Shown piece by piece: positions 193-43,938 of a stretch of DNA of 45,689 nt (its first letter is position 1; the number at the start of each line of letters is the position of its first letter). This stretch comes from an uncultured bacterium (GTDB lineage: Bacteria; Patescibacteriota; Patescibacteriia; Patescibacteriales; UBA12465). The DNA lies in the NCBI GenBank assembly GCA_937983635.1, contig CALJZR010000001.1, positions 1 through 45,689 of the forward strand, read 5' to 3'. The notes under the pieces are model-generated. The model was not told the origin of the DNA. It did not search any database and saw nothing but the letters and a program-made list of their open reading frames with translations. The position numbers and the translations under genes were made by a program.

Positions 193-229
193 GCAAAGAT
201 CTATTGTTGAGCTGTGGAGAAACTGTGTA

Positions 230-258
230 TTGACAAAAGTTGACTATTGTAATATTAT
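230..258 (+). promoter_or_regulatory. Sigma70-like promoter candidate (TTGACA-17 bp-TATTAT)
   Basis: TTGACA at 230-235, a 17-bp spacer, and TATTAT at 253-258. A second TTGACT lies at 240-245. It sits in a 370-bp spacer that lacks ORFs. Confidence 0.35.
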
Positions 259-297
259 AGAAAATACAATCAGCTATTAGGTAAAAATCCCATTAAA

Positions 298-348
298 AAC
301 GGCCGGTAAGGTGTAAATTTCTTCTCTGCTCACCAATCCGTTTTTTTT
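298..348 (+). terminator. Weak intrinsic-terminator-like hairpin followed by T8
   Basis: AACGG (298-302) pairs with CCGTT (338-342) and GGTG (310-313) pairs with CACC (331-334). The T-run is 341-348. The stem is interrupted, so confidence is low. Confidence 0.3.
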
Positions 349-435
349 GTATTTTTCGCCAAAATTCACTTTATAAATAAGCTTTATTCTAAAGTGATTA
401 TAAACTCTAGGTGCAATTAAATAAGAGATAGGGAA

Positions 436-465
436 CTCAAACCTTTTTAAGTTTGAGATTTTTTT
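436..465 (+). terminator. Intrinsic-terminator-like hairpin plus T-run
   Basis: CTCAAAC (436-442) pairs with GTTTGAG (451-457) around an 8-nt loop. A run of seven T follows at 459-465. Confidence 0.4.
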
Positions 466-562
466 GTTGAAAGCACCCCTCTCATCAAGTCAATAAAATT
501 CAGGCCGGACTATCGCTTTTCTGTTTATCAGATGGCGCTTGGTTTGTTGCCCATAAAGTTCT

Positions 563-21275: not shown

Positions 21276-21279
21276 ATAA

Positions 21280-23283: not shown

Positions 23284-24036
23284 TTATTGTGCCAGCAAAC
23301 CGTCAATCATGCTGGTAAAATTTTCTTCAGGGTAGAAGCCGGTAATTTTATAGCGATTAACAAACCAGCTAGGCGTTCCGGAGAGACCTAAGAGTTCGGC
23401 GTCGGCAAAATCGTCATTTAAACGATATAGATAGGTTTTGTTATCTAAACAACTATTGAATTTTTCCGTTTCTAACTTTATTTCGGCGGCTACTTCTTTT
23501 AGCTTGGCATTCAAAGCGGCGCTTTGGAGGCTGCTGATTTCCGTTTGTCGTTCAAACAATAAGTCGTGCATTTCCCAGAATTTACCTTGGGCTCCAGCGC
23601 AGTTGCCGGCAAGGGCGAGGTCTACCGAATTATCATGTAAGGGGTAGTCGCGAAAGGTGATGCGTATCTGATTGCCGTATTTTTTAGCTAAATTTCTGAC
23701 CACGGGAGCGGCTTGCTGGCAGTAAGGGCAGGCATAGTCAGAAAAAATTACAATTTTTACCTTGGCATCTTGCGGGCCAAGACTATAATTTTCCCCCCGT
23801 CCATCAATGGCGGCAGTAATTTTTTTTATTTCTTCTTCTTGGGCGGCGATACTTCCGCTCTCTCTGATATTTTTAACTTGATTAACTATATAGCTAGCCG
23901 CCGTAATGGCTCCAGCAATTATTAGAAAGATAAAAATTATGAGCATGATACCCCACCATTTTTTATACCAAGGGCGGAGTTTAACTTTGTGTCTTTCTTT
24001 CATTTCCAAATATTGGATACGCTCATTAAGGCTCAT
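23284..24036 (-). CDS. Membrane-anchored DsbA-family thiol:disulfide oxidoreductase
   Basis: N-terminal TM (WWGIMLIIFIFLIIAGAITAASYIV) and a thioredoxin-fold CPYC active site (FSDYACPYCQQAAP), with DsbA-like length and layout. It is the first gene of the minus-strand cluster. Confidence 0.85.
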   Translation of the reverse strand: MSLNERIQYLEMKERHKVKLRPWYKKWWGIMLIIFIFLIIAGAITAASYIVNQVKNIRESGSIAAQEEEIKKITAAIDGRGENYSLGPQDAKVKIVIFSDYACPYCQQAAPVVRNLAKKYGNQIRITFRDYPLHDNSVDLALAGNCAGAQGKFWEMHDLLFERQTEISSLQSAALNAKLKEVAAEIKLETEKFNSCLDNKTYLYRLNDDFADAELLGLSGTPSWFVNRYKITGFYPEENFTSMIDGLLAQ

Positions 24037-24916: not shown

Positions 24917-24947
24917 AAGCATTTTAAAGGATTGTAATTTATTTTAT

Positions 24948-28238: not shown

Positions 28239-28288
28239 TTTGAGTAATCTTGTTTTGTCCAAAGTTTTTAAAATTGGCCAGATTACTT

Positions 28289-28933
28289 ATGTCTGATCAC
28301 CTTGAAGATCAACCAAAAAATGAGACTCATTCCTCATTTTTTAAAAGTTTGCCCAAACCGCAGCGAGCCGCTTTTTTATTTTTATCGGCCCTGAGTTTGG
28401 GCGTTCTTGTTTTATGGCTCTGGCAGTTCAACGCTCGCCTTTCTCGGCCTTTTCGCGTACCTGATACTGGCCAAAAAGAAGTGGCGGTTGACACTAGCGA
28501 TTTTGAAGCGGCTTTAATTAGTTTAGATTCTGATGGCGACGGTTTGACTGATATAGAAGAACGGAGCTTATACGCTTCTTCCCCTTATTTAGAAGATTCC
28601 GATAGTGACGGTATTGATGACCGCACTGAAGTAGAAAGCGGCAGCGATCCCAATTGTGCCGCTGGCCAAGATTGCGGTGCCGCTACCGCCCCGGCAATCA
28701 CTCCAATTATTGCCAGCTCCACCACCATTGATGTTGAACCTGAAGTTGGCGCCGATAGTGGCGATGAAACTGATCTACAGGCGATGATGGCGGGGCAAGC
28801 CAGCGCCGCCCAACTCCGCGCCATGCTTTTAGATAGCGGCGCTAACGCTGACATGATTAACCAGCTTAGCGATGAAGAATTACTCAAGACCTATCAAGAA
28901 ATGTTAGCCGAGCAGGGGACTGCGGCCCAATAA
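28289..28933 (+). CDS. Membrane-anchored protein with thrombospondin type-3-like calcium-binding repeats
   Basis: The ATG at 28289 (MSDHLED...) is preferred over the TTG at 28250. It has one TM (AAFLFLSALSLGVLVLWLW) and two acidic loops, DSDGDGLTDIEE and DSDSDGIDDRTE (28526-28630). It ends 22 nt before the giant gene. Confidence 0.7.
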   Translation: MSDHLEDQPKNETHSSFFKSLPKPQRAAFLFLSALSLGVLVLWLWQFNARLSRPFRVPDTGQKEVAVDTSDFEAALISLDSDGDGLTDIEERSLYASSPYLEDSDSDGIDDRTEVESGSDPNCAAGQDCGAATAPAITPIIASSTTIDVEPEVGADSGDETDLQAMMAGQASAAQLRAMLLDSGANADMINQLSDEELLKTYQEMLAEQGTAAQ

Positions 28934-28955: not shown

Positions 28956-31900
28956 ATGTCTGTGAAAATTATGAATAAGCGATTTAATTTTTTAGCCAAT
29001 CGGCAAAAATTAGGGGCAGTGGCGATTTTAGCCGTCATCATTGGCTCTTTATTTTTAATCTCACCGCAGTCAGCGCAAGCGCAGATGGTGACAGCCGACA
29101 CTCAGACTGTTTCTCAGACTTTTATGCAAAAAGTTTGGGATTTTTTAAAGAAAGCTTATGAAAAAGGCGGCGCCTCGGCTTTTCAAAAAACAGTCAGAAC
29201 GGCTTTGAATAAAATTGCTTACGATACCGCTACGGCTCTTGGTTCTGGCGGCGAAGGTCAGCAGCCTTTATTTGTTACTAAAGACTGGGGAGAGTATCTT
29301 ACTCAAATTGGCGATGAAGCGGCCGGTTCTTTTATTGAAGACGCGGTTAATAATTGGAATGATGCCGATTGGGATAGTACGGGTAAGGGGAGCGCGAAAA
29401 ATGAAGAATGTACAGCCTCTTATGAAACCTGTGCTCGTGGCACCTTTAATACGGTAACTCGAGAATGGGAGGGCGGCTGTGATATTATCCAAAATTCCCA
29501 AGAGGCGGCTGAGTGTGAAAAAAAGTGCCAATCGGCGCTTTTGCAATGCGGGGGAGTAGTTACCGGCGCCGATGGGGTCACCGCCCCTAAAAGCAGCCGA
29601 ACTATCGCCGTTTGCCAACCCTCTTCCATTTCTGCCAAATTAACCATCGCCATGGGCTTGGTTGATTATAATCGCCCCGCAGCCCCTAATTGTACCGCCT
29701 CTGCTTTAGTGGAAAATTGGGATAGCTATGTTGATCGCATGACTGCTTTTAAAGAAGATGACTTTTTGGATAAGTTTGCCGGTATCTTCAATCCTGTTTC
29801 CAATGATCTCGGTATTTACATGGCCTTGCGGACAGATATGACCCAGAAGATGGCTACTTCTGTTGATACTTCCAAATTAAAATTAAATGCGGATAAGGGT
29901 TGGCTGGATATCCGCGATATTGCCGGCAATCCCAAAGGCATGCCTGGTGATGCTGCTACTCAGGCAGAGATGTCTAAGCAGGGCTATGTTAATAACATGG
30001 CCTCATTTTCCGGCGACGCTTTAATTGATGCCGCTAACGTCTTTTTAAATCAATTAGCTTTAACTGCCTTTAATCGTTACATGAGCAAACTGGGAGAAAA
30101 GACTCCTGATTCGGTTAGTATTAACAATCCCACTTCTGATCCGAAAATTGGTTATAGTGAGGTGGCGGTCAGGGAGAGTGCTGCTCAGATAATAGAACCC
30201 GACTTTACCGTCCGGGCTGACTACGACATTTTGTCTTCTCTCAGTATGTGCCGCGATCGCAACAATCCTGGCCCGGCCGAATGCGTCATTGATGATAAAC
30301 TGATGCAGGGAATTGTGGAGAAAAAAACAGTCGCGGAAGCGGCTAAAGAAGGCTATCTTCATAAGGAGTGGCTCTTTACTGCTGATTTTCGTGAGGGTTC
30401 TTATAGTCTGAGAAATTTGCAAATCATGCGCAAGTACCGCATTGTTCCTTTGGGCTGGGAAGTGGCGGCCAGTGCTAATAAAACAGCAACTCTAGTAGAT
30501 TTAATGTCCTGTTTCAGTAATTCCGATTCTTATAATGAATATACTTCTAACTTTGATATTAGAAATCAAGCTTGGTGTCGCGGTTTGGTTGATCCTAATT
30601 GGGTTTTGAAGGCGCCTCTAAATTATTGTGCTAAACAAGGTTACAGTGCTCAGATTCTTAATACTTCGGTTATTCCCAGTGTTGACGGTAATGGCAATGC
30701 GGCGGACACAATCCAAATCACCCGCGCTGAAGATTATTGCGCCGATGATAAAACTTGTATTAAAGAGAAGGCCGATGGTAGTTGCGAAGCTTATGGTTAT
30801 TGTCAGTCTGAGCGGCGCACTTGGAATTTTGATTCTAAATCTTGCCAACCGATTAATAATACCTGTAGCTCTTTGATTAATGTCAGCTCTAACCAGAAAG
30901 TGGCTTATTTGGAAAATACCTTAGATTATGCCAATTGTAATGCAGATACGGTTGGTTGCAAACGTTATTCTTTAATTGGCTCTTATGCTACTTCCACCGG
31001 TCAAGTCTCTTGGTCTCCTAATCCTACTGTTAATGCTTATTTTAATAATAAATTAGGTTCCTGTTCTTCGGCTGACGAGGGTTGTAAAGAAGTGATGCGG
31101 GTAAAACCGGGCTGGGGCTCAAACTTAATTATGGGCGCCGATTTTGCTAATGATAAGGTCGGCGATTCCTTGGCTAATAGCTTGATTAATAATTATTGGC
31201 CGGTCTGGTCTACTGGTAATCGCGCCGCCAGCATTATTGACGCTTCGACTCTTGGAAGCGGTTCAGTGGGTAAGGCGATCTTATTAGAATCTACGGGTAA
31301 TGTCGCTAGCACCACCATCGGACTTTATTCCGATAATGCTGTTTCTCTAATTCCTGATAATCTTAATATTCTTTCTGGAGAAACCTATACTCTGAGTGCC
31401 GATGTTTATTTAATTGAAGGCGACAAAGTTCATGTGGTCTTGGGTAATGATTATTTAGCAGCAGCTGAGACGATTGATAAAAATGCTTGGCGCCATGTGT
31501 CTGTTACTCGGAGTTTAAAGGAAAAGCCTTTGTCAGAAATGTCTTTCTCGGTGGTGGGTTATAGCACTGGTTCTCAAGTGCGTTTTGCTGTTCGCAATCT
31601 TAAGTTAGAGATGACTTCTTGGGATTCCGGCTTCTCGATTTACGGGGCTTATAAGGTTTATGAAAAGATTATTCCTCCTTATTTAGCTGAAGCCTGTTAT
31701 ATCAACACCAATCCCAGTAGTCCTGATTATCGTTTGCGTCCAGACGCTCCGGCTGTTTGTAATAATTTTGCTCGTCAGTGTAACCGTGATGAAGCTGGTT
31801 GCGAAAGCTATAAAGAGAATAGCACCGGTTTTACTGTAGCCGCTCAAGCGGTTTCCTCAGATTATTGCGATGCTTCTTGCGATGGTTATGATTTATATGT

Positions 31901-34900
31901 TTCCCGGGCTAATTATTTCTACTCTCCTTTTGCCGAAAAGATTATCCCGAAAAATAGCCGCTCCTGCAGTGCTGATGCGGTTGGTTGCAGTGAGTTTACT
32001 AATTTAGATGAAGTAGCGGCTGGTGGCGAAAAGAGAGAATACTATACTCAGTTGAAGCAATGTATTAAGCCCGGACCAAGCTGTGCCGATTTTTATACTT
32101 GGGAAGGGACGGAAGAAAGCGGTTATCAGCTTAAATCTTTGGTCTTAAAAAAAGATGATGCTGGCGACCCGGCCGTTACCGCTGATGATTCTCAGCTTTG
32201 TAGCGAAGCCATTTTCAACTTGCCGCCGAGCGACCCGGGCTTTAATCCTGATTGTAAACAATTTTATAATAAAGCGGGGGCGATTTCTTATCACTTAAGC
32301 GCCACCACTATCACCTGTTCGGATAATTGTCATAATTATCGCCTCTCCGAAAATAACGTTGATACTTCTATTACTCAAGCCCAGTGCAGTGGCATTGATC
32401 GTTTTTGGAGTGCTGCCTCTTCTGCTTGTTTCGTGTGTAAAAATGGTGGCGTTTGGAATGCTGAATATAATGCTTGTATTTATCAAGCAATTCCTAACGA
32501 AGGCATTAAATGTTCGGCCGCTCAAAACGGTTGCCGGGAGTATAACGGCAGTCTGGGCAATAACGTGAAGATGGTTGAAGCTTATAGTTTTGAGAATGGT
32601 ACCGATGGCTGGAAAGGCCAGTGTGGTGATGATGCCCGCAGTTCCGCTGTCGCTAATGTCAATAACGGTAAGTCGTTATTATATGATCGCGGCTCCAATT
32701 ACGGCAACGTTAATGTTCAAACAGAGTGTATCCAAAATAATAATGTAAGCTTTTTTGATAAATTTTTTGGCAGTGCTAACGCCGCTCCGGCTTCCTATAT
32801 CAAGCAAGTCGTTGGTCGTAACGTTTCTCAGGGCAATTCTTATAGCCTGAAGTTTACCGCCAGCGCTCCCTTGGATGCCAACGTCAGTTTTGCTTTCTTA
32901 AGCAGTCAGGATGAAATCGTCTATTTTAACGCCAGCGAAGGCGATATTACCGGTAAAATTACTATTTCTGGAAATAGCGAATGGCGAACGTATGAATTGA
33001 GCCTGCCTGAACTTAATCATAAAGTTGATGGTGATGAGTCTTTGATTATTATTTCTGATCGTGATTTCTTCTTGGATAACATTGTTTTAACGGAAATTCG
33101 CGATCGTTATTATTTAATAAAAAATACGAGCGAAGTGCCGGATGTTTGTTACTATGATATGCTGGATAATTATCAGGGAGCTGACTATAATCTCGGTTGC
33201 TCTTTGTATAATGACCGATCCGGCAATAATCATTATTTGCGCCAATTTAGCCGCCTTTGTCAGGAATCAGCTGTTGGTTGTGAGTTGATGGTGGATACCG
33301 CTAATTATGATGATTATAAGCCTGCGGTCTGGCACGATGATAATAATAATGGTGTTTGCGACTCCAACGAGACGGAATGCGTATCTGTGGCTGGGGACCG
33401 TTTCTTTTATGCAATTTATGACGAAAGCCGTCGTTGCAATAAAGCTGATTTAGGTTGCTCCCGTTTAGGAGAATCATCCTCATCTGGCTCCAACTTAGAT
33501 TGGAGCGATGTCTTTAAGCGCAATAACCCTAATAACTATAGTCAGTCATTATGCGCTGCTGCTGATGCCGGTTGCGAAGCTTGGCAATATACTGATGGCA
33601 GCGGACTTACTTATTTCAAAAATCCTGGCAATAACGCCTGTGTTTATCGGACTAGCACTAATCCCGATAAGCCGGGTAAGGCTTGGTATAAAGTGCCGGT
33701 TACTCGGTGTGATTTGAATAGTAATGGTAGCATTGATGGTACGGAAAAAAGCTTGGATATTTGTAAAACTGCCGATGATTGTGCTGGCGGTCGCCCTTGT
33801 TTAGTGGATAATAATGATTATGATTGTTCCGTTTCCTATTTTAAGACTGTCGGTTTTGGCGGCGGTGGCAATCAAGTTCCTGTGCCTTCCTTGGCAGCTG
33901 GTTTGTGTGAATCAGCTAGTTCTGGCTGTACGGAATATATTGATCCGGTAAGCACTTTCTCTTCCAACGTGGTTTATAATCCCCTTACGGAGATGAGCGC
34001 TAATGGTCAGTATTTAGGCTGGGAAATGGTTAATGGTTCCCGCCAACAAGATTTAACGCTTGAGCCGAACAAGCTTTATATTTTTTCGGTAGGCTATAAT
34101 GTTGCCAGCACCACTATTAATAATGATGTAATTATTAATTTTCCTTCCGGAGTATCACTTCTTCAAGAAGATAATAATTTCAGCACCGTAGCGAGTACAA
34201 GTTTGCGCATCCCCAGTACTCAGCCGAACAAACGCTTTATTTTCCATTCTCGTGGCAATATTGAAGCGACCGTTATTGGTGGCTGGCTTGGGCATGAAGT
34301 TATTTTAAGGGAGGCAATTATTGATTATCAGTTCCGTCAGAATGTTGATAAGACCACCTGTAATGGCATTGTAAATTTTGATAATGGTTGCGTTTTGTTT
34401 AATGAGCGCTCGGTTAATGGTGGAGCCGGACTACTTTCTTTGAGCGGCGGTTGGAACGCGGCTGCCAGCGTTGACGGACAGTCGCCTGCTAGTTGTTCTG
34501 CCGGTAATTGTAGCGCTAATAGGTTGGTAAAAGTTCGACCTAATCGCGTGTGCGCTTCTTGGCTGGACTGTTTAACTTATGCGGTGGATCCGGAAACTAA
34601 TCAGCGCACCTGTTATGCTTTAGGCGAGTGCAATAGTTTAAATGATAATAATGAATGCGCTAATTTTGTTAGATCATCTAATCAAATCTTAGCTTCTTCT
34701 AGTTTTGATATTACTAAGCGTGATGGTTATTCGGTCCTAAATAAATTGAATCTTTCGGGCATGAGAGAGGTTGGTCTTAATACTGAGGCTCATTATGACT
34801 TTGAAGATGCTAGCCCAAATATAACTTGCAAGTTGGTCTCTAATAGTACTTCCACTTGTGCTTTTGATAATGGGATTGTCGCTGATAGCATTATTGACAG

Positions 34901-37199
34901 TCCGACTAAGGCACCTACGGATTATCCAGCAGAAGGCAAAGCTTATTTGCGCGTAATGGGCGGTCAAATGATTTCACCTCACTCTTCTAATGCGCCTATT
35001 TCTATACAAAAAGGTCAAGATTATTATTTGAATTTTTTGGTTAATACTAAGGGCTCTGGGGTTGATGCCAAGGTTTGGTTATATAATGCCATTAATGGTA
35101 ATTTAATTACTTCTGCGACTTTTAGTTCTGTTAATGGTTGGGAGCGTCGAGTATTGAGGATTCCTGGCGCTAGTCTCAGCGCTGTTGATTCTATTAGAAT
35201 TTATTTTGGTGCTAATACGAACGCTAGGGATGAACGCTATGTTTATTTTGATGATATCAATATTGAGCCTGTGCTCCAGGTAGCTGGTGATAATGGCGTT
35301 AATAGTTATATTGCTAAAGAGTGTCGTCTCTATCCAACTCAAGATGCCACCTCTTGTACTAGTAAAAATAGCCAGGTTGTTAGTGATGGCTTAGTTGGTT
35401 ATTGCTTGCAGCATGACTTAGCCAATAAGAATGTCTGCTTGCTGTGGTATCCGATTGATCAAATTAGTGCGGCCTCGAAGTCAGCTCGTTCTAATCTTGG
35501 TTATCAAGGCGCCTATCCTCTTAATTATTGTACGGAAGCTAATGGTAATTTTAATCTGGTTAAAAAGGTTGTATTAAAAGTAATATACAAAAGAGGGGAT
35601 CATAGTAATGACGGCAACGGTGGTTATATAAATAGTAATAGCGATGGTTATACTGAAATTAATGCGGCTATTTGTGGAGACGCAATTAATTATCGAGCAA
35701 TAGTCACAAATAGAAAAGAAAACTGGAATTATGAAACTATATATTGCGTCCCTAGAGCTGGCACTAATGTTGTGATTTCCGGACCATCAACCAATATTGA
35801 ATTTTATGGCAACGTTTTGTCTTGGACTTGGGTAAAATATAATAGAATAGTTTCTGTGCCTGTTATCAATTGTACTTGTGGTTCAGACAATGATGCTTGT
35901 CCAGATGATTGCAGTCCTATTGATGAGATAAAAAATGCCGAGCCGCCCATTAGAGTTTTTGACTATGATCACCCCACGGTTGATGAATATCAATTAAAAC
36001 TTATTTCCTCTATTGATGAAGAAGAGGTTTATTATCCAACCTGTAACCGTTTTACTCAGGTTGTAGATGCGGCGGGAAATAATAAAGCTTGGGCCGGAAG
36101 AACTAGTAAGTCTAGCATTTATCCTTATGAGACTCCTGCTTTTTTCCGTGACGCCTCTAATTATTACGGACCAGCTTGTTACATTCCAGGGGAATGTATT
36201 GAAACTTGTGAATGTGGCACTCATTGCGATTGTGACTATGGGGCAGAATATTGTTCCGCTCCTTGTGGTATACCTGGTGATTGTTATGAATATGCTCCTG
36301 ATCAAGTTGTCCCTTGTGGTACCCCCGGTTCTTTACAGGATTCTAGCGCCTTTAATTTTACAAAATATGGGCGTCTACGTGATTTAGTTCCTTTTGGCGC
36401 CGCTACTTTCCCCGATGATTTTAATATTTTTGCGGCCGATGAGCCTATCATGTTCCGTAGTCAGAATTCCAGCAAATTAGACCAAAAGGTTTTTGCTGGT
36501 CGTCCTTATAGCTGTCAAGGCCTTGGCTGTGCTAATATTGGCTATTGTAGCTTAAACCCCCAGGTAATCTGTTTATTGGACAATACTGTTAGCTCTAGTA
36601 CCTCCTTAGTTAATCAGAGGTCTTGCGGTAGCGCTAATGGCACCTGCCTACCTTTATGGAACGCCTCTAAATTCACCTATACCTTCTATCCGGAGAATAT
36701 TTTAAAGAATGTTTTCTTAAAATCTTTTGCTGGATATAAATACAGTTCTAGTACTAACGCTTATATTATTGATGCCGCTCCCGGCTATAGCCAGCCTGCT
36801 GCTGTCGGTGGCTCTTACAATCCGGGCTTGTGTACGTCTGACAGTGCTCATTATTCCTCCAACGATTCCAGTTATTCGACTTATTGGTGCGGTGTAAAGC
36901 CGAAAATTAGCAATGTGAGATTAAACGGAATCCTCTCTACCAGCACGGGCATGTTTGATGTTTCTAAGCCAGGAATTTATACCCTCACATTCAATACGGC
37001 CGTTGACGTTGAACAACAACCTTTGCGGGAGTTAATTGTTGATTGGGGTGATAACTCTATGCAGAGCCTGGTAAATCAAGACCATCGTCCCGATGTTAAT
37101 AATCCTTATAAACTTTATCATTATTACCAGGGCGGTGCTGGTGTGTTGAAGATTGGCATCAAAGTTACCGATAATTGGGGATTTTATGCGAATTATTAG
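28956..37199 (+). CDS. Giant (2747 aa) secreted/anchored cysteine-rich surface protein (putative adhesin)
   Basis: This is an uninterrupted 8.2-kb ORF. It has an N-terminal signal/anchor (LGAVAILAVIIGSLFLISPQSAQA), many Cys, nine C-x5-G-C motifs, three jelly-roll/CBM-like modules and a C-terminal PKD-like module. Confidence 0.9.
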   Translation: MSVKIMNKRFNFLANRQKLGAVAILAVIIGSLFLISPQSAQAQMVTADTQTVSQTFMQKVWDFLKKAYEKGGASAFQKTVRTALNKIAYDTATALGSGGEGQQPLFVTKDWGEYLTQIGDEAAGSFIEDAVNNWNDADWDSTGKGSAKNEECTASYETCARGTFNTVTREWEGGCDIIQNSQEAAECEKKCQSALLQCGGVVTGADGVTAPKSSRTIAVCQPSSISAKLTIAMGLVDYNRPAAPNCTASALVENWDSYVDRMTAFKEDDFLDKFAGIFNPVSNDLGIYMALRTDMTQKMATSVDTSKLKLNADKGWLDIRDIAGNPKGMPGDAATQAEMSKQGYVNNMASFSGDALIDAANVFLNQLALTAFNRYMSKLGEKTPDSVSINNPTSDPKIGYSEVAVRESAAQIIEPDFTVRADYDILSSLSMCRDRNNPGPAECVIDDKLMQGIVEKKTVAEAAKEGYLHKEWLFTADFREGSYSLRNLQIMRKYRIVPLGWEVAASANKTATLVDLMSCFSNSDSYNEYTSNFDIRNQAWCRGLVDPNWVLKAPLNYCAKQGYSAQILNTSVIPSVDGNGNAADTIQITRAEDYCADDKTCIKEKADGSCEAYGYCQSERRTWNFDSKSCQPINNTCSSLINVSSNQKVAYLENTLDYANCNADTVGCKRYSLIGSYATSTGQVSWSPNPTVNAYFNNKLGSCSSADEGCKEVMRVKPGWGSNLIMGADFANDKVGDSLANSLINNYWPVWSTGNRAASIIDASTLGSGSVGKAILLESTGNVASTTIGLYSDNAVSLIPDNLNILSGETYTLSADVYLIEGDKVHVVLGNDYLAAAETIDKNAWRHVSVTRSLKEKPLSEMSFSVVGYSTGSQVRFAVRNLKLEMTSWDSGFSIYGAYKVYEKIIPPYLAEACYINTNPSSPDYRLRPDAPAVCNNFARQCNRDEAGCESYKENSTGFTVAAQAVSSDYCDASCDGYDLYVSRANYFYSPFAEKIIPKNSRSCSADAVGCSEFTNLDEVAAGGEKREYYTQLKQCIKPGPSCADFYTWEGTEESGYQLKSLVLKKDDAGDPAVTADDSQLCSEAIFNLPPSDPGFNPDCKQFYNKAGAISYHLSATTITCSDNCHNYRLSENNVDTSITQAQCSGIDRFWSAASSACFVCKNGGVWNAEYNACIYQAIPNEGIKCSAAQNGCREYNGSLGNNVKMVEAYSFENGTDGWKGQCGDDARSSAVANVNNGKSLLYDRGSNYGNVNVQTECIQNNNVSFFDKFFGSANAAPASYIKQVVGRNVSQGNSYSLKFTASAPLDANVSFAFLSSQDEIVYFNASEGDITGKITISGNSEWRTYELSLPELNHKVDGDESLIIISDRDFFLDNIVLTEIRDRYYLIKNTSEVPDVCYYDMLDNYQGADYNLGCSLYNDRSGNNHYLRQFSRLCQESAVGCELMVDTANYDDYKPAVWHDDNNNGVCDSNETECVSVAGDRFFYAIYDESRRCNKADLGCSRLGESSSSGSNLDWSDVFKRNNPNNYSQSLCAAADAGCEAWQYTDGSGLTYFKNPGNNACVYRTSTNPDKPGKAWYKVPVTRCDLNSNGSIDGTEKSLDICKTADDCAGGRPCLVDNNDYDCSVSYFKTVGFGGGGNQVPVPSLAAGLCESASSGCTEYIDPVSTFSSNVVYNPLTEMSANGQYLGWEMVNGSRQQDLTLEPNKLYIFSVGYNVASTTINNDVIINFPSGVSLLQEDNNFSTVASTSLRIPSTQPNKRFIFHSRGNIEATVIGGWLGHEVILREAIIDYQFRQNVDKTTCNGIVNFDNGCVLFNERSVNGGAGLLSLSGGWNAAASVDGQSPASCSAGNCSANRLVKVRPNRVCASWLDCLTYAVDPETNQRTCYALGECNSLNDNNECANFVRSSNQILASSSFDITKRDGYSVLNKLNLSGMREVGLNTEAHYDFEDASPNITCKLVSNSTSTCAFDNGIVADSIIDSPTKAPTDYPAEGKAYLRVMGGQMISPHSSNAPISIQKGQDYYLNFLVNTKGSGVDAKVWLYNAINGNLITSATFSSVNGWERRVLRIPGASLSAVDSIRIYFGANTNARDERYVYFDDINIEPVLQVAGDNGVNSYIAKECRLYPTQDATSCTSKNSQVVSDGLVGYCLQHDLANKNVCLLWYPIDQISAASKSARSNLGYQGAYPLNYCTEANGNFNLVKKVVLKVIYKRGDHSNDGNGGYINSNSDGYTEINAAICGDAINYRAIVTNRKENWNYETIYCVPRAGTNVVISGPSTNIEFYGNVLSWTWVKYNRIVSVPVINCTCGSDNDACPDDCSPIDEIKNAEPPIRVFDYDHPTVDEYQLKLISSIDEEEVYYPTCNRFTQVVDAAGNNKAWAGRTSKSSIYPYETPAFFRDASNYYGPACYIPGECIETCECGTHCDCDYGAEYCSAPCGIPGDCYEYAPDQVVPCGTPGSLQDSSAFNFTKYGRLRDLVPFGAATFPDDFNIFAADEPIMFRSQNSSKLDQKVFAGRPYSCQGLGCANIGYCSLNPQVICLLDNTVSSSTSLVNQRSCGSANGTCLPLWNASKFTYTFYPENILKNVFLKSFAGYKYSSSTNAYIIDAAPGYSQPAAVGGSYNPGLCTSDSAHYSSNDSSYSTYWCGVKPKISNVRLNGILSTSTGMFDVSKPGIYTLTFNTAVDVEQQPLRELIVDWGDNSMQSLVNQDHRPDVNNPYKLYHYYQGGAGVLKIGIKVTDNWGFYANY
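31131..31610 (+). other. Jelly-roll / carbohydrate-binding-module-like segment 1 of the giant protein
   Basis: The pattern ...GKAILLESTGN...YTLSADVYLIEGDKVHVVLGN...WRHVSVT...VRFAVRNLKLE resembles CBM_4_9/laminin-G-like modules. This is pattern recognition only. Confidence 0.4.
32583..33098 (+). other. Jelly-roll / CBM-like segment 2
   Basis: YSFENGTDGWKG...GKSLLYDRG...SYSLKFTASAP...EWRTYELSL...FFLDNIVLTEI is the classic F-E-x-G-x-x-GW start and F-x-D-[DN]-I-x-L end of CBM-type sandwiches. Confidence 0.5.
34791..35273 (+). other. Jelly-roll / CBM-like segment 3
   Basis: HYDFEDASP...GKAYLRVMGG...GQDYYLNFLVNTKG...NGWERRVLRIPG...IRIYFGAN...YVYFDDINIEPV. Confidence 0.5.
36897..37196 (+). other. 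PKD-like Ig-fold module at the C-terminus of the giant protein
   Basis: ...PGIYTLTFNTAVD...LIVDWGDNS...YKLYHYY...LKIGIKVTDNWGF matches the PKD pattern (WDFGDG-like, HxY, VTD-x-G). Confidence 0.5.
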
Positions 37200-37304: not shown

Positions 37305-37724
37305 ATGAAAAATTTAATGTTTTTGTTGTTGGCAACAATGTTTATCTTTGTTGCTTGTAAAAAGGATCCAGACCCCGATCCAATTCCCGACCCACCGCCA
37401 GTGTCATATGATAATGTGACAGTAAAGGTAAAATTTACCGCTGCCCCCCAGGGGATGGTGGTTACGGTGACCAATTTTGGTTTATCTGACCAAGACAAGG
37501 TTGCTCTTACCTCCAATCTTTACCCGGTAGTACCAAGTCCGGTTGCTGATTTTACCTGGCAGGTTCCCGAGGACATTGCTTTTCAGCAGTGGAATAAAAC
37601 CGTCTACATATATGTAGGCGCTTGCCGCAGCGACGGCTACGCATGCTACGGCCAGGAAGAATGGCTTAAAATTGACAAGTTGGGCAAAACCAACGAAGTC
37701 ACATTTGTCGTTAAACCTTTCTAG
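37305..37724 (+). CDS. Small putative lipoprotein with Pro/Asp-rich linker
   Basis: Signal peptide MKNLMFLLLATMFIFVAC with a lipobox-like FVAC, then the KKDPDPDPIPDPPP linker and a beta-rich domain of about 100 aa. Its codon usage is visibly C-ending (GAC, GGC, TAC, TGC), unlike its neighbours. Confidence 0.7.
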   Translation: MKNLMFLLLATMFIFVACKKDPDPDPIPDPPPVSYDNVTVKVKFTAAPQGMVVTVTNFGLSDQDKVALTSNLYPVVPSPVADFTWQVPEDIAFQQWNKTVYIYVGACRSDGYACYGQEEWLKIDKLGKTNEVTFVVKPF

Positions 37725-37750
37725 GCCTGAGTTTGTACCGTTTAATTTTT

Positions 37751-37785
37751 CCGCTTCCTTTCTTTTTAAGGGAGCGGATTTTTTA
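37751..37785 (+). terminator. Intrinsic terminator after the lipoprotein gene
   Basis: CCGCTTCC ... GGGAGCGG hairpin followed by ATTTTTTA. Confidence 0.55.
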
Positions 37786-39696: not shown

Positions 39697-40284
39697 ATGT
39701 CCGTTGATGACCGGCTCTTATCTGCCCAAACTGAAAAAAATCCTAACAATCAAGCTGAATCCAGCTCCGATCGAGCGGGCGCTTTGCGGGAATCTCAACG
39801 AGCCGAAGAAAATAATGAAAATGAACCGGAACAAGAAGATTTGCGCAGCCAGGTGATGAGCAAGAGAAAGGAGATGGCCCTAAAGATGAAGGGGAAACTT
39901 AGTAAAGCAGAATTGGCTTTTAGTGCTGGCACCAGCAAGCTTCTTCAAGGGGCTTGGCGCAATATCGTCATGTCATTTGGTTTTTCTTTTCTCTATGTTT
40001 ACGTCCATTTATTTTTAAAAGGAATCTTTGGTAAAAGATTTTTTGCCGATTTGGGCTCAGAGTGGCGCGATCGTCCCGGTTTGACTATTGAAGAGAGGGA
40101 AAGAATGGGGGTTAGTTTGAAGATAATTGAATCTTTTGGTGTTGGCGCAATCAGTATTCTTATTTTTATCATTTTAATTTTTTCTTTTTCTATTCCCGCT
40201 TTAATTATTGAGGTTATGTCCAATCCTCTTCGTGCCGGCATTGCTTTGCTCCAGACTTTTTGGAGCTGGATTTCCGGTACTTAG
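39697..40284 (+). CDS. Hypothetical membrane protein (acidic disordered N-terminus plus hydrophobic helices)
   Basis: 195 aa. The first ~70 aa are Glu/Asn/Ser-rich. TM-like segments follow (IVMSFGFSFLYVYVHLFL and GVGAISILIFIILIFSFSIPALII). It ends 9 nt before the next gene. Confidence 0.65.
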   Translation: MSVDDRLLSAQTEKNPNNQAESSSDRAGALRESQRAEENNENEPEQEDLRSQVMSKRKEMALKMKGKLSKAELAFSAGTSKLLQGAWRNIVMSFGFSFLYVYVHLFLKGIFGKRFFADLGSEWRDRPGLTIEERERMGVSLKIIESFGVGAISILIFIILIFSFSIPALIIEVMSNPLRAGIALLQTFWSWISGT

Positions 40285-40293
40285 AATATTTAT

Positions 40294-42969
40294 ATGCATT
40301 TTAAAATGCCCAATTTTTTGAAAAATAGAAAACTATGGTTGGCAACACTCCTGATTTTTGCCGCCAGTTTTTTAGCCGCCCCTAACGTTTTTGCTAGTGC
40401 GGGCGACTGGGCGGGGGAAGTAGTTGGTAGCATTATCTATGTCTTTATCTGGGCCCTCGGACTAGTTTTAATTCTAGTGATGAAGGCCCTTATTTTAATT
40501 GCCTCTTATCAGAATTTTATTAGCTCTGGTGCAGTGCAGGAAGGCTGGACGGTGGTGCGCGATTTGTCCAACATGTTTTTCGTAGTGATTCTTTTAGTGA
40601 TTGCTTTTTCCACCATTTTGCATTTGGAAAATTATAGTTATAAGAAGTGGTTGCCGAAATTAATTTTAATGGCGGTGCTGATTAATTTTTCCAAAACAAT
40701 CTGCGGTCTGTTGATTGATGTCGCTCAGATTATCATGCTTACTTTCGTTAATGCTTTTAAAGATGTCGCTGGCGGTAACTTGATTGAGATGTTAGGAATT
40801 AGGGAAATTGTCACTTTAGCAGAAGGGAGCGATTCGGTGGGTTTTTGGCAAATTGTTGGCGCTTATGTCCTCGGTTTGATTTACATGATTATTGCTCTCG
40901 TGGTTATTACCACCATGATGATGATGCTGGTGATGCGCCTAGTCATGATTTGGATTTATGTGGTTTTATCGCCCCTAGCTTATCTACTAGCCGCTTTTCC
41001 GGGGGGCGCTCAGTATGCTTCGCAGTGGTGGAGTGAGTTTATTAAGAATTTGATAGTCGGTCCTGTTATTGCTTTTTTTATCTGGTTGTCTTTTGCTGCT
41101 TTGCAAACCGGTAATTATAACGATGTTGGTAGTGTTGGCACCGCCAACATTAGTGCGGAACAAGAAGCTTTTTCCGGTTCAATAGCTAAAGTTGACGGCG
41201 CCTCCACTCCGAGCATGGGGACGCAGGCCTCCACTCCTGGGGTTTTGATTAAATTTGTGATTGGCATCGGCATGCTTATCGGCGGCCTTAAAGTTGCTCA
41301 ACAGATTGGCGGCGCCGCTGGTTCGGTGGCGGGCAAGGGCATGGGCAAATTGGCGGCCATGGGTGCGGCTACTGCCGCCTTCGGCAAGAAGTGGGGCGGA
41401 AAGGTTGCCACTGGTGATAATTATCTAGCTCGCAAAACCATGAAGGCTGCGAAATTTGATTTTCGTCCCATGGCATTATCTAATGCCATTAAAACAAGTT
41501 TTGAAAATGCTAAGAAAAAAGACGAATTTGATATTAGAGATCAAGGTGAAAGAAACTTAACAAAGGGTGGAGTCGTGAGTGTGTTGGGAGGAATAGGGGC
41601 AGGACAAGGGTATGGAGATGCTTATTTGAGTTGGCGTGGAGCAGCGAGAGCTGTTGGAGAGGTGACAGGATTTAACAGCACGCGTCGACAACGTTATCAG
41701 GATGATTTAAGTTTAGCGGAAGAAAATTTAAAACAGAAAGAAAAAGAATTTTCTCCGCTTATGTCTCATGACATGGAAGCTAATATTCAAGTAAAAATAA
41801 ATCAAGGAATTGCTGATGTTGCTGCTTATAATCAAAAAATGAGTGACAACCAGAATGCTATTAGCGCTATTGATATTATAATAAATAAGCTTCAGGGAAA
41901 GGTCGATAATAATAAGGCTTCATCTGATGAAATAAAAAAATTAAGAGAATATAAAGCGGATCGTAAAAACTTAGAAAATGATAATTCGACGCTGTTAGAT
42001 AAGAAGAATGTTGTTCAAGATGATATTAACAAAAATCAGAATATACTTAATGACGCTAGGGCTAATAATCGCATCGTTTCTAATAGTGACTATCAAAGCA
42101 AAAAAGATGATATAACAAAAGCTAAATCAGAGGTTAGTAATGCTAAGATTTTGTTGGCAAGAGCTTTACCTCCTCGTGACTTGGAGGGTCGAGCTAATTA
42201 TCGCTCTGAAATTTCTCAAGCAAAAAAGAAATTTGATGAAATTTCTGAGCCGTCCGAAAAACTTACTCTATTTGAAGACGCTGTTAAGAGAAAAGATCGT
42301 ACAGATATGGTTGCTTTAATGGAGAGCTTGATGAGTGATGTAAATTTTAATGAATTATTGCTTTCTCGAGGTTACAATCAAGACGGCCGTGGCATGATTC
42401 AATTTTTGCATAATGAAGAAAATGAGTATGGAAAAAGAAATGGCCTAGATATTAAAGGTTTGGACGAGCAATCGCTTTTAAAGATTCAGAACGATCTGTC
42501 AGTCATAGCAGAGAGCACTGGCCAATGGACTTTTGCTAAGACTGTAGGCGTGGACGCCGGTGGTTCCAGATATAGCACAGTTAAGCGAGATTCTAATGGT
42601 AATTGGGATGACTCCGAACAAGTAATATCTGCTTTGACCGATTTATTAAAGAACGATCCTCAAAAATTAATGACTAGTTTACCTAGATTTGCTTTTGGTG
42701 GGAATGATGTTAATGGTAATTTTAAGTTAGCTAATTTAGGAAAGGCTTTGGCCTTGGCTCTTGATAGGTCTCAAGCTTTCCAGAAGCAAGGAAATCGTAT
42801 GCGTCCGAATTTAGCAATGAATCTGTCTTTTGTTATAGATGATTTAGAGGCAGCAGGCGTTTCTCCGGAGGGTTTAAATGTTATTAAGACTTACGGCGGT
42901 AATGCTAGCGGCGGTATTGGGGCAGATTCTTTGGTGGAAGAACTAATTTCAAAAAATAAATTTAACTAA
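40294..42969 (+). CDS. Large polytopic membrane protein, tentatively VirB6/TrbL-like N-terminal domain plus Gly/Ala-rich segment, coiled-coil and C-terminal globular region
   Basis: 891 aa with signal peptide LATLLIFAASFLAAPNVFASA. About 6-7 TM helices span aa 40-270, including VLSPLAYLLAAFPGGAQYASQWWSEFIKNLIVGPVIAFFIWLSF, which is reminiscent of TrbL/VirB6. A G/A-rich stretch is IGGAAGSVAGKGMGKLAAMGAATAAFG. A Lys/Asn/Asp-rich heptad-like region spans aa ~470-640. Confidence 0.8.
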   Translation: MHFKMPNFLKNRKLWLATLLIFAASFLAAPNVFASAGDWAGEVVGSIIYVFIWALGLVLILVMKALILIASYQNFISSGAVQEGWTVVRDLSNMFFVVILLVIAFSTILHLENYSYKKWLPKLILMAVLINFSKTICGLLIDVAQIIMLTFVNAFKDVAGGNLIEMLGIREIVTLAEGSDSVGFWQIVGAYVLGLIYMIIALVVITTMMMMLVMRLVMIWIYVVLSPLAYLLAAFPGGAQYASQWWSEFIKNLIVGPVIAFFIWLSFAALQTGNYNDVGSVGTANISAEQEAFSGSIAKVDGASTPSMGTQASTPGVLIKFVIGIGMLIGGLKVAQQIGGAAGSVAGKGMGKLAAMGAATAAFGKKWGGKVATGDNYLARKTMKAAKFDFRPMALSNAIKTSFENAKKKDEFDIRDQGERNLTKGGVVSVLGGIGAGQGYGDAYLSWRGAARAVGEVTGFNSTRRQRYQDDLSLAEENLKQKEKEFSPLMSHDMEANIQVKINQGIADVAAYNQKMSDNQNAISAIDIIINKLQGKVDNNKASSDEIKKLREYKADRKNLENDNSTLLDKKNVVQDDINKNQNILNDARANNRIVSNSDYQSKKDDITKAKSEVSNAKILLARALPPRDLEGRANYRSEISQAKKKFDEISEPSEKLTLFEDAVKRKDRTDMVALMESLMSDVNFNELLLSRGYNQDGRGMIQFLHNEENEYGKRNGLDIKGLDEQSLLKIQNDLSVIAESTGQWTFAKTVGVDAGGSRYSTVKRDSNGNWDDSEQVISALTDLLKNDPQKLMTSLPRFAFGGNDVNGNFKLANLGKALALALDRSQAFQKQGNRMRPNLAMNLSFVIDDLEAAGVSPEGLNVIKTYGGNASGGIGADSLVEELISKNKFN

Positions 42970-42975
42970 TTTTTT

Positions 42976-43938
42976 ATGTTAATTCTTGAAGGCTTAATCG
43001 ATGAGAATTTTCAAAATAAATTATCTCATTTTATTGATGATGCCTTAATTTATAATGACATTCAGAGTGCTAGGAGATTATTAATTGCTATTAAAAAAAT
43101 ATTAAAGAGCAATAATGACCCTAAAATAAAAAATAAGTTGATTGATTATTATAAAGCTAATATAGATAAACTAAAATTCATTTGTTTTTTTGATTTAGAT
43201 GAAAATGATATTTCTGATTTAATGAAAAACAGCATACAGATGGTTTTAGGTGTTGATGGATTTAACTTGGTCGATAAATTAAATGATCGTCTTAAATTTG
43301 TTGAAATTTTAGAAAATAGAGATCTTTTAAAGCAACAAATAAGCAATTGTTTATTATTGAATAAAAATAAAGTAACTACTAAAAAAATTAGAATTGGATC
43401 TATTCTCCACGAACCAACCGTGTCAAATTGGTTAAAAGATTACTTGTCTAATATTAATCTTAGTGTAGATCCCGGACTTAGAATTAATAATTATTTGAAT
43501 AATAGTCAAAATATCCAGTTAATTGATTCTAATGAAAAGAAAAAGATTAAAGATTTGATAGTATTTTTTGAACATACTAAAAAATCTTCTTTAGTTGCAG
43601 GTAATTTAGAGGAAAGTTTTATTTTTACAGATCAGGACGGCCGAAAAATTGTTATTGATCATGGTCTTCCTATTAAGTCTGATGTAAATATTGAGAAAAT
43701 TATAAAAGACATTTATTCAAAAGAAAATTTGTTGGATATTGGCAAAGATAGTTTTATAAATTCAAAAAAACGAGATTTTTATAGATTTAACAAAAAAATA
43801 GAAGATTTAGATTCTTTTCCGCCAAATCCTTTATTAATCCTGTCTAATTCATTAAATAATTACTCTCCCTCGTCTTTAGAATATAAAGCCATTAAGCAGG
43901 AAATAGAAAGACTGCGTAAAAATCAAAAAAATGTCTAG
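42976..43938 (+). CDS. Hypothetical soluble protein (very AT-rich gene)
   Basis: 320-aa Asn/Lys/Ile-rich ORF with no TM and no motif I recognise. GC is strikingly lower than its neighbours. Its end overlaps the kinase start by 8 nt. Confidence 0.6.
   Translation: MLILEGLIDENFQNKLSHFIDDALIYNDIQSARRLLIAIKKILKSNNDPKIKNKLIDYYKANIDKLKFICFFDLDENDISDLMKNSIQMVLGVDGFNLVDKLNDRLKFVEILENRDLLKQQISNCLLLNKNKVTTKKIRIGSILHEPTVSNWLKDYLSNINLSVDPGLRINNYLNNSQNIQLIDSNEKKKIKDLIVFFEHTKKSSLVAGNLEESFIFTDQDGRKIVIDHGLPIKSDVNIEKIIKDIYSKENLLDIGKDSFINSKKRDFYRFNKKIEDLDSFPPNPLLILSNSLNNYSPSSLEYKAIKQEIERLRKNQKNV

Follow-up and report, generated by a model that had tools for sequence, protein, structure and literature searches.

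What function could account for a single open reading frame (ORF) that takes up 18.0% of a 45,689-nucleotide stretch of patescibacterial DNA? Much of bacterial diversity belongs to the Patescibacteria, whose cultivated members live attached to other cells. The stretch (contig CALJZR010000001.1 of assembly GCA_937983635.1, lineage UBA12465), here called the window, contains on its plus strand an ORF at 28956..37199 that runs from an ATG start to a stop ending at 37199 and codes for a Cys-rich protein of 2,747 aa, hereafter the giant. An original prediction, made from the sequence alone, described it as a multidomain surface protein with a key role in attachment to, or recognition of, a partner cell or glycan. 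We found that the giant is a real gene under strong purifying selection and that its relatives recur next to genes related to type IV secretion systems (T4SSs). On the basis of these gene contexts and of the predicted modules, we favor, with roughly even confidence, the view that it is the extracellular, glycan- or partner-binding arm of a patescibacterial T4SS-like apparatus.

The giant is an intact and strongly constrained gene

The chance of 2,747 open codons at this base composition is about 1e-74. Relatives with 91% and 87% identity span 100% of the query, and an intact ORF of at least 2,500 aa is present in 63 of the 83 independent loci that were fetched; every shorter one stops at a contig edge or at a gap of Ns. 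Thus, the uninterrupted ORF of the original prediction is borne out, and the frameshifts or stops that had been named as grounds for rejecting it were not found. Comparison with L004, the closest relative with available DNA (87% amino acid identity), yielded a ratio of nonsynonymous to synonymous substitution rates (dN/dS) of 0.08 overall. The ratio is 0.01 to 0.07 over residues 1 to 1650 and 0.12 to 0.22 in the segments 1651 to 1800 and 1951 to 2400, with lower values between them and toward the C terminus. This amounts to a gradient of constraint that is strongest at the N terminus and weakest in the C-terminal third.

The possibility that the giant is an assembly artifact or a pseudogene was raised by the share of the window that it occupies, and no point in support of it was found. 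It is contradicted by the full-length colinear ORFs in 63 independent assemblies, by the low dN/dS, and by a repeat scan of the gene, which found no tandem or long direct DNA repeats able to cause misjoins. For these reasons, we regard its probability as practically nil and the artifact or pseudogene reading as excluded. An origin by a diversity-generating retroelement, recent duplication, or misassembly was likewise ruled out, given the lack of direct or tandem repeats in the gene and of an adjoining reverse transcriptase.

A word-indexed search retrieved 122 relatives, nearly all of 2,600 to 2,800 aa and colinear with about 100% of the query, at identities falling from 91% to 28%. Those that carry a name are all annotated "hypothetical protein" and come from Patescibacteria or "Candidatus Falkowbacteria." When GTDB was scanned with one genome for each species, full-length colinear relatives were found in at least 596 species-representative genomes. 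An exhaustive search with a profile of the N-terminal domain alone (aa 40 to 600) recovered 1,365 representatives at 50% identity with E values of ≤1e-3, 760 of them at ≤1e-30. In every one of the best 150 of the 1,365 matches, the domain is placed N terminally, and almost all of the proteins are 2,400 to 3,000 aa long. Stand-alone versions of the domain were considered and rejected, the few short matches being annotated as partial or lying on short contigs. The sampled metagenome-assembled genomes (MAGs) have one giant locus each, with one MAG adding a second, fragmentary contig. The most divergent relatives keep the order of parts and gain or lose β-sandwich cassettes.

The clearly patescibacterial giant locus also occurs in many MAGs that were deposited under the name "uncultured Gammaproteobacteria bacterium" (TPA_asm records), and two family members bear the labels Candidatus Omnitrophota and Bacillota, respectively; these are likely mislabeled or misbinned records.

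The original prediction had proposed a comparison with related giants to separate conserved from variable modules. That comparison delineates a conserved N-terminal domain and Cys framework on the one hand and a variable segment at aa 2200 to 2400 with clade-specific inserts on the other. The giant being a core syntenic gene with a fixed architecture over hundreds of species and a low dN/dS, we could rule out a fast-evolving, strain-specific adhesin.

Domain architecture of the giant

The window giant has no match in Pfam, NCBIfam, PHROGs, or the PDB sequences, either as a whole or in tiles, and about 80% of it, comprising the N-terminal domain, every spacer, and the C-terminal third, has no counterpart among described families. 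No description of the family was found in the searchable literature on Falkowbacteria, giant proteins, and Cys-rich proteins. Its organization was analyzed with conservation counts from a 57-sequence alignment and with two AlphaFold2 tiles, aa 40 to 1205 (32 sequences, mean predicted local distance difference test score [pLDDT] of 58) and aa 1548 to 2747 (28 sequences, mean pLDDT of 60). The parts are listed in Table 1.

The sole hydrophobic segment of the protein (residues 19 to 37) is preceded by a basic n-region and followed by a P-x-x-A-Q-A↓Q sequence, the arrow marking the cleavage site, with Pro at position −6. The A-x-A↓Q arrangement recurs in relatives, with A-x-A present in 77 of 113 members. 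Export by the Sec pathway is therefore predicted, and the mature protein would be about 295 kDa, with a pI of 4.75. No second transmembrane (TM) segment, LPxTG motif, or lipobox was detected in the window giant or 113 relatives; LPxTG is found within the last 80 aa of none of the 113 members, and there is no C-terminal hydrophobic tail. Of the N-terminal signal or anchor of the original prediction, a cleavable Sec signal thus stands, with no other membrane, sortase, or lipid anchor. Since the giant lacks an intrinsic anchor, it needs a partner.

The N-terminal domain has the lowest dN/dS (0.013 to 0.07 against L004). Invariant acidic residues occur in or just after it (D90, D120, E502, D546, D597, and E604), and a variable Cys-containing helical-hairpin insert lies within it at aa 150 to 200. 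AlphaFold2 modeled it mostly as long helices with a pLDDT of <50; the first 390 residues and several spacers fall below this value, and a small α/β subdomain at aa 440 to 550 is modeled confidently. The domain gave no Pfam match in 32 members beyond subthreshold ones. Subthreshold matches to DUF4141 (4 of 33 members; best, 8e-5; 23.7 bits in P0074 against a cutoff of 30) and to TrbC/VirB2 (5 of 33; best, 0.0018) recur over the leader, which they largely cover, and the mature N terminus. The mature N termini of many members (AQ↓MVV[ST]DP and A↓IPVEDIP) may resemble the start of VirB5/TrbJ, which, like these subthreshold matches, we take as a lead only.

The giant has 104 Cys residues (3.8%), 76 of which lie in columns that are at least 90% conserved, giving a conserved framework of about 38 Cys pairs. 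The C-x5-G-C motif occurs nine times, against 0.28 ± 0.53 in shuffled sequences, and C-x6-C occurs 18 times, against 3.9 expected; all nine C-x5-G-C motifs share the wider pattern C-x2-[AS]-[DAE]-x-G-C-x-x-[YFW]. These counts confirm the long Cys-rich region that had been noted from the sequence. Where the spacers are modeled at a pLDDT of 70 to 86, they are strings of short β-hairpins. Two 12-residue Ca2+ loops in the third spacer fit the canonical pattern, in which positions 1, 3, 5, and 12 provide ligands, position 6 is Gly, and position 8 is hydrophobic; these positions are conserved in 37 to 53 of the 57 members, and the chance expectation for both loops is about 0.00. No EF-hand Pfam match was found in the whole giant or in the tile members, and in the model, the loop at aa 1586 to 1597 is flanked by a strand and a short helix and forms part of a Cys-rich module. 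Because of this context and the lack of a Pfam match, we class the loops, on the model, as isolated Ca2+ loops of the kind found in TSP3 or dockerin and not as EF-hand domains. Hence, of the EF-hand-like loops originally proposed, two canonical conserved loops remain, without the paired helix-loop-helix context.

Three modules, at about aa 720 to 900, 1205 to 1385, and 1940 to 2110, have conserved jelly-roll starts of the type F-E-x-G-x-x-G-W and ends of the form [YF]-x-D-[DN]-[IFL]-x-[LI]. Two of them were modeled, and Foldseek matched both (aa 720 to 900 and 1940 to 2110) to solved carbohydrate-binding modules (CBMs) with a probability of 1.00 and template-modeling (TM) scores of 0.5 to 0.66 (target normalized). 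Sandwich 1 matched CBM4-2, CBM61, CBM29, and CelK CBM4 at TM scores of 0.55 to 0.66 (target normalized), and sandwich 4 matched CBM22, CBM4, and CBM16. Further matches to the sandwiches were phage tail-fiber, tailspike, and host-specificity proteins and reelin repeats. CBM-type matches filled the three fold searches, masking the α/β subdomain, the Cys spacers, and the C-terminal sandwich. The family profile retrieved two CBMs alone from PDB, 4d0q and 1gui. The window giant itself has no Pfam match at an E value of ≤1, whole or in tiles, and does not reach the gathering score of CBM_4_9 (PF02018). In about half of the giant's relatives found, however, a precomputed PF02018 match is present. It scores 45.7 bits in P0120, 33.9 in P0074, and 30.9 in P0009 against a cutoff of 25.9, and it is seen at an E value of ≤1 in 10 of 32 members of the aa 40 to 1205 tile; the Pfam match sits at the position of sandwich 2 in P0074 and at that of sandwich 4 in P0009. 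The three jelly-roll modules of the original prediction are thus corroborated, with a smaller fourth sandwich at about aa 1680 to 1795 that its list had missed. The confident models (pLDDT of 80 to 94) also provide the extracellular-type fold whose absence had been put forward as a ground for rejection. Together, they suggest a lectin-type carbohydrate-binding activity, as predicted from the models.

CBM4/9/22 modules normally accompany glycoside hydrolases, which raises the alternative that the giant is a glycan- or wall-degrading enzyme, a "can opener" for host envelopes in which aa 43 to 560 would be catalytic and the CBMs would provide targeting. Arabinanases, xylanases, and agarases are indeed among the Foldseek matches; constraint is highest in the N-terminal domain, which contains invariant acidic residues; and a link to wall degradation has been drawn for giant genes in other bacteria that are ultrasmall or predatory (bioRxiv 10.1101/2023.11.21.568195). 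However, no hydrolase, lyase, or peptidase family was found in the giant or 32 relatives even at an E value of ≤1, the family profile found no enzyme in PDB, and the low-confidence helices modeled for aa 43 to 560 form no recognizable catalytic fold. We consequently give this alternative very little credence.

The C-terminal third is the most variable part. Its segment at aa 2200 to 2400 retains only 7 to 33% identity in relatives that are 45 to 55% identical overall, has the highest dN/dS (0.16 to 0.22 against L004), and is a candidate specificity determinant. The further Cys-dense segment of the original prediction, aa 2401 to 2454, does exist, but its Cys residues are conserved in only about 18% of the family, and we consider it a lineage-specific insert because about 76% of the relatives have a gap there. 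The terminal module had been called PKD-like. A β-sandwich with conserved W-G-D-G, H-x-Y (H-x-Y-H-Y-Y), and D-N-W motifs is indeed predicted there, but PKD models (PF00801 and PF18911) gave no match at an E value of ≤1 in 28 members or the whole giant, and the family profile matched no PKD chain in PDB. The PKD-like label is thus supported by these motifs and the predicted sandwich only.

These contrasting regions bear on a second alternative, that the giant is a housekeeping envelope protein (an S-layer-like or wall scaffold or a device for capturing glycans as nutrients) whose lectin modules bind the polymers of the cell's own wall. The single locus per sampled genome, the fixed architecture, the near-universal presence in the clade, the very low dN/dS, and the embedding among housekeeping genes would all fit such a role. 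Yet no SLH, S-layer, or wall-anchoring family was returned in the Pfam and NCBIfam scans, and 104 Cys residues are atypical of S-layer proteins. Moreover, the variability of the C-terminal third, which contains a hypervariable domain and inserts specific to clades, is more in keeping with an external partner being recognized than with self-binding, and we consider the envelope alternative quite unlikely.

Linkage to type IV secretion genes

Over the 83 loci, the gene order is nearly invariant: DsbA on the minus strand, followed by Exo_endo_phos, LeuRS, KsgA, a TSP3-like membrane protein, the giant, u195, u891, u320, and PfkB. The TSP3-like protein, giant, u195, u891, and u320 constitute a conserved module, and the TSP3-like gene adjoins the giant in 75 of the 83 loci. 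In several divergent lineages, this module is contiguous with T4SS genes. In L084, the P0114 locus, and L089, whose giants are 28%, 33%, and 34% identical to that of the window, the giant is followed, in order, by homologues of u891 and u320, a gene for a protein of 512 to 589 aa (g550), PrgI (VirB3-like), and a TraC-like gene. A VirB4-type ATPase gene comes next in L084 and L089, and the gene list of the P0114 locus ends before a VirB4 call. The L084 genes are homologous to those of the window (TSP3-like, 2e-21; u891, 6e-57; u320, 9e-7).

The g550 gene lies between the u320 homologue and PrgI (L084, 25813 to 27351; L089, 15734 to 17503; also in the P0114 locus) and has no family match; a tblastn search found no counterpart of it in the window (E > 0.8). 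In three distant loci (L088, 21816 to 22208; L089, 15239 to 15610; L091, 22190 to 22579), a small gene for a four-helix bundle of the 23S_rRNA_IVP/bAvd-like family directly follows the u320 homologue. Its position is that of the breakpoint of the T4SS cluster in loci of the window type. The family includes accessory proteins of diversity-generating retroelements; in the window, neither a bAvd-like gene nor a reverse transcriptase was found, nor was any pair of template and variable repeats.

We then quantified this linkage in a metagenome scan that used the u891 family as its anchor, led by a divergent sequence, and in which 80 loci were analyzed. The giant is directly upstream of u891 in 26 of the 39 loci with at least 2.5 kb of upstream sequence. 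Among the 33 with at least 4.5 kb downstream, 23 run into g550-PrgI-TraC-like-VirB4, some only as far as the contig end, and 8 reach PfkB only. The 23 loci informative on both sides comprise 8 with a giant and the T4SS core, 7 with the core and no detectable giant, 5 of the window type (giant and PfkB), 2 with a giant and neither, and 1 with PfkB only. In L166, an ORF of at least 1,286 aa with 71 Cys residues (positions 1 to 3858) lies upstream of the u891 family gene and runs off the contig start. The window giant does not detect it at an E value of ≤1e-4, and it probably belongs to the giant family as a branch that has diverged further. If so, the 7 of 23 T4SS loci scored as lacking a giant may be an overestimate.

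The protein u891 is a candidate extended VirB6/TrbL-like channel protein, as judged from its sequence features. The top recurrent Pfam match among its homologues is TrbL/VirB6 (3 of 46; best E value, 4e-5), the L091 homologue has a weak precomputed TrbL_3 match, and u891 shows the same layout as the "extended VirB6" architecture described previously (PMC12857230). The u891 family profile yielded low-complexity coiled-coil matches only and no VirB6 in PDB, and single sequences of u891 and u320 had no PDB matches. To judge from the gene orders, the T4SS cluster is ancestral and was split after u320 in the clade of the window.

These linkage data do not by themselves separate a T4SS component from a stand-alone surface lectin or adhesin fiber for host or environmental glycans, whose T4SS neighborhood would be inherited synteny without coupling. 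The evidence for an extracellular location serves both equally. Furthermore, leuS and ksgA show synteny of the same degree, the clade of the window has a split cluster, L087 and L090 have kept the giant but not the downstream module, and essential lectin-domain adhesins are encoded outside the T4SS locus in Saccharibacteria (PMC10633639). On the other hand, the adjacency of the giant, u195, u891, and u320 holds down to 28 to 35% identity while other neighbors change, the giant has no anchor of its own, and its most conserved part is the N-terminal domain and not the binding modules. We therefore hold the stand-alone adhesin to be possible but doubtful.

A proposed role as the extracellular arm of a T4SS-like apparatus

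Under the favored view of the giant as an arm of the T4SS-like apparatus, it would be cleaved after Sec-dependent export and then oxidatively folded. The conserved helical N-terminal domain would dock noncovalently on the VirB6-like protein, the TSP3-like membrane protein, or both, and the alternation of Cys spacers and lectin modules, rigid and stabilized by Ca2+, would extend outward across the wall. Glycans or proteins on a host or partner cell could then be bound by the lectin modules and by the variable C-terminal region. By doing so, the giant might hold the T4SS channel, possibly including its VirB2-like pilins, against the target, with the variable C-terminal part adding partner specificity. 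Extracellular binding is the most reasonable reading of the attachment or recognition role originally proposed, to which the context of T4SS genes, missed at that time, can now be added.

Several observations weigh against this view. The window has no PrgI, TraC-like, or VirB4 gene, and in its clade the cluster is broken after u320, with gltX (minus strand) and a lipoprotein gene also parting the giant from u195. Over the 83 loci, synteny with the giant is no looser for leuS and ksgA than for the T4SS-like genes, so that adjacency alone may reflect general genome synteny. The giant went undetected in 7 of the 23 T4SS loci informative on both sides, and the downstream module has been lost beside the giants of L087 and L090. 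The assignment of u891 to VirB6 comes from weak matches (3 of 46), the family profile found no VirB6 in PDB, and the model of the N-terminal domain, which would do the docking, is of low confidence (pLDDT < 50). Finally, such strong purifying selection is unusual for an adhesin that recognizes hosts.

A bolder proposal makes the giant an extracellular conduit or tip of the essential, nonconjugative T4SS itself. A VirB5-like N-terminal domain seated on a VirB6-like pentamer would be fused to a 250-kDa Ca2+- and disulfide-stabilized lectin rod, which would cross the envelope to reach the host surface, choose the host via the variable C-terminal domain, and position (or form part of) the channel for the uptake of host molecules. 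We regard this as unlikely. If true, it would define a new structural class of T4SS surface components and offer a first molecular entry point to host specificity in the ABY1/Falkowbacteria lineages.

Gene neighborhood in the window

The window comes from a small-genome organism of the Falkowbacteria type, and its gene content is that of a Patescibacteria-type chromosome segment, with rpoB/rpoC, a family 2 glycosyltransferase (GT2), MurJ, LepA, RecJ, a pyruvate:ferredoxin oxidoreductase (PFOR) operon, DsbA, LeuRS, KsgA, GltX, and PfkB. The original prediction had pointed to a DsbA-like oxidase and a glycosylation cassette that could mature the giant. The former was recovered by Pfam and is syntenic with the giant, being present in 58 of 83 loci. 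The latter corresponds to GT2, tetratricopeptide repeat (TPR), and MurJ genes that are more than 15 kb from the giant, and no test showed a link between them; MurJ is a lipid II flippase.

The TSP3-like protein has a TM segment at residues 37 to 61, two TSP3-type Ca2+-binding repeats, a Cys pair, and a helical tail; its true start is probably the ATG at 28290. The AT-rich u320 gene is a compositional outlier (GC of about 0.31 against about 0.42 for the window). Only the subclade of the window has the insertion that parts the giant from u195, with gltX present there in 10 of 83 loci and the lipoprotein gene in 2 of 83.

Two genes for T4SS_pilin (PF18895) proteins sit 8 to 10 kb upstream of the giant. 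They are interleaved with genes for PFOR subunits (TPP_enzyme_C, POR_N, and POR), an arrangement kept in more than 50 loci, and share a 96-nucleotide, 72%-identical stretch that encodes the hairpin; the 434-aa protein ends in a VanY/Peptidase_M15-like domain, as seen in its L001 homologue. Elsewhere, a Pfam search at an E value of ≤1 gave no match for a 507-aa ORF (8044 to 9567, plus strand) that is flanked by rpoC and the GT2-TPR-MurJ genes. The listed LeuRS ORF (24867 to 27380) starts at a TTG and overlaps the end of the Exo_endo_phos gene (24155 to 24916) by 50 nucleotides; since homologous loci call a LeuRS that is about 30 aa shorter (806 to 812 aa), its true start is probably further downstream.

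Table 1. Parts of the giant and genes of its neighborhood, with positions in the window
Feature	Residues of giant	Positions	Strand	Description
Sec signal peptide	1-42	28956..29081	+	Predicted signal peptidase I cleavage A40-Q-A42↓Q43
N-terminal domain	43-560	29082..30635	+	No known family; most constrained part
Cys-rich spacer 1	561-719	30636..31112	+	Invariant Cys pairs; two C-x5-G-C
β-Sandwich 1	720-900	31113..31655	+	CBM4/9/22-like jelly-roll; pLDDT 80-94
Cys-rich spacer 2	901-1204	31656..32567	+	Disulfide-stapled β-hairpins; all Cys invariant; pLDDT 70-86
β-Sandwich 2	1205-1385	32568..33110	+	Putatively CBM_4_9-like, by motifs and the P0074 Pfam match
Cys-rich spacer 3	1386-1679	33111..33992	+	Holds both 12-residue Ca2+ loops
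Ca2+ loop 1, DDNNNGVCDSNE	1461-1472	33336-33371	+	Canonical 12-residue pattern
Ca2+ loop 2, DLNSNGSIDGTE	1586-1597	33711-33746	+	Canonical 12-residue pattern
Small β-sandwich 3	1680-1795	33993..34340	+	All-β in AlphaFold2; pLDDT 70-84
Cys-rich spacer 4	1796-1939	34341..34772	+	Cys conservation
β-Sandwich 4	1940-2110	34773..35285	+	CBM4/22-like; pLDDT 80-91
Cys-rich spacer 5	2111-2199	35286..35552	+	Cys conservation
Most variable region	2200-2400	35553..36155	+	β-rich; pLDDT 66-84
Cys-dense insert (CECGTHCDCDY...)	2401-2454	36156..36317	+	Gap in about 76% of the family
Cys-containing region	2455-2645	36318..36890	+	Low-confidence model; conserved Cys; one variable subsegment
C-terminal β-sandwich	2646-2747	36891..37196	+	Confident; pLDDT 73-89
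PF18895 T4SS_pilin (VirB2-like) TM-hairpin proteins		18093-19397 and 20268-21302	-	Cys-rich, secreted/membrane; Pfam
DsbA-like thiol oxidase		23284..24036	-	N-terminal TM; Pfam Thioredoxin_4 and DSBA
TSP3-like single-pass membrane protein		28250..28933	+	Pfam TSP3_bac, E = 7.5e-6; 22-nt gap upstream of giant
Lipoprotein-like ORF		37305-37724	+	139 aa; Pro/Asp-rich after Cys 18; own promoter-like site
Strong terminator		37750-37778		After lipoprotein-like ORF
gltX		37836-39497	-	Inserted with lipoprotein gene between giant and u195
u195		39697..40284	+	Small protein; C-terminal hydrophobic hairpin; conserved module member
u891		40294..42969	+	Signal peptide; about 7-8 TM helices; long hydrophilic coiled-coil tail
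u320		42976..43938	+	Soluble Lys/Asn/Ile-rich protein; no family match; conserved module member

Significance and comparison with known systems

Many genomes of about 1 Mb keep this gene of about 8 kb intact and under strong constraint beside VirB6-like genes and, in many lineages, beside the VirB3/VirB4 core. If the giant is indeed the arm of a T4SS-like apparatus, it would be a concrete candidate for host recognition and holding, aa 2200 to 2400 would be a defined variable region to relate to host range, and the soluble lectin modules could be expressed and tested without cultivating the organism. Surveys of T4SS neighborhoods limited to known profiles have missed the largest gene of the locus. 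A survey of patescibacterial T4SSs reported VirB2-, VirB3-, VirB4-, VirB6-, and TrsD-like components and no adhesins, and described systems that lack a relaxase and are probably nonconjugating (PMC12102498). The T4SS is essential in the only patescibacterial species that is genetically tractable. Its role has been called "completely unknown" (PMC11665869). The saccharibacterium Southlakia epibionticum requires both its T4SS and several surface proteins with lectin domains, all of them essential (PMC10633639).

Among characterized proteins, PrgB (aggregation substance), like other surface adhesins of Gram-positive conjugative T4SSs, offers a close parallel in gene position. Both PrgB and the giant are large surface proteins exported via Sec, their genes precede the VirB6-, VirB3-, and VirB4-like genes of a monoderm-type (MPF-FATA-like) T4SS, and their presumed role is to hold the target cell. 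In pCF10, the order is prgA-prgB-prgC followed by prgH (VirB6-like), prgI (VirB3-like), and prgJ (VirB4), and here it is the giant followed by u891 and then PrgI, TraC-like, and VirB4. L084, L089, the P0114 locus, and 8 of the 23 loci informative on both sides show the corresponding position, whereas the window has the VirB6-like part only. However, the giant and PrgB share no homology in sequence or domains, with no related match in Pfam, NCBIfam, or PDB, and the giant lacks LPxTG, is about twice the size of PrgB, is Cys rich with CBM-type lectin modules, and is a chromosomal core gene instead of a plasmid-borne one. VirB5/TrbJ, the minor pilin at the stalk or pilus tip on VirB6, resembles the giant in its Sec signal, in the helical N-terminal region predicted for the latter, and in being encoded just upstream of a VirB6-like gene. 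Yet the giant has 2,747 aa against about 220 aa, matches no VirB5/TrbJ model at threshold, and is separated from the VirB6-like gene by u195. On the basis of its placement, the giant may be viewed as a positional analogue of PrgB/VirB5 with no detectable homology to either.

At the level of its modules, the giant shares the jelly-roll fold and motifs with CBM4, CBM9, CBM22, and CBM16 and with the phage "CBM-cenC" receptor-binding proteins, but it has no match to an attached catalytic domain, and long Cys-rich spacers instead of linkers part its modules. The alternation of CBM-like jelly-rolls with disulfide-stapled modules and Ca2+ loops is also reminiscent of reelin and of the stalks of eukaryotic matrix proteins (EGF, TNFR, and furin-like). 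This is an analogy of architecture only, since the giant is bacterial and has no EGF or other known Cys-module signature. Unlike the RTX, Bap, and LapA giant adhesins, it has an N-terminal Sec signal, no DNA repeats, and no Pfam repeat families.

The investment of a large share of the genome in one extracellular, Cys-rich, Ca2+-binding protein is a trait in common with the giants of other small-genome symbionts. Precedents include the large Cys-rich, Ca2+-binding proteins proposed for the DPANN archaeon Huberiarchaeum (PMC6792436), Giant1 to Giant5 of Apilactobacillus (PMC12863079), and the giant genes of Omnitrophota (bioRxiv 10.1101/2023.11.21.568195). The patescibacterial giant differs from these in being nonrepetitive, without tandem Ig or RTX arrays, in its fixed length, in its strong purifying selection, and in its T4SS-type neighborhood. 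Giant surface lectins and T4SS-associated adhesins are known kinds of proteins, and the patescibacterial giant is a nonhomologous, very widespread, and, at the domain level, largely novel addition to them.

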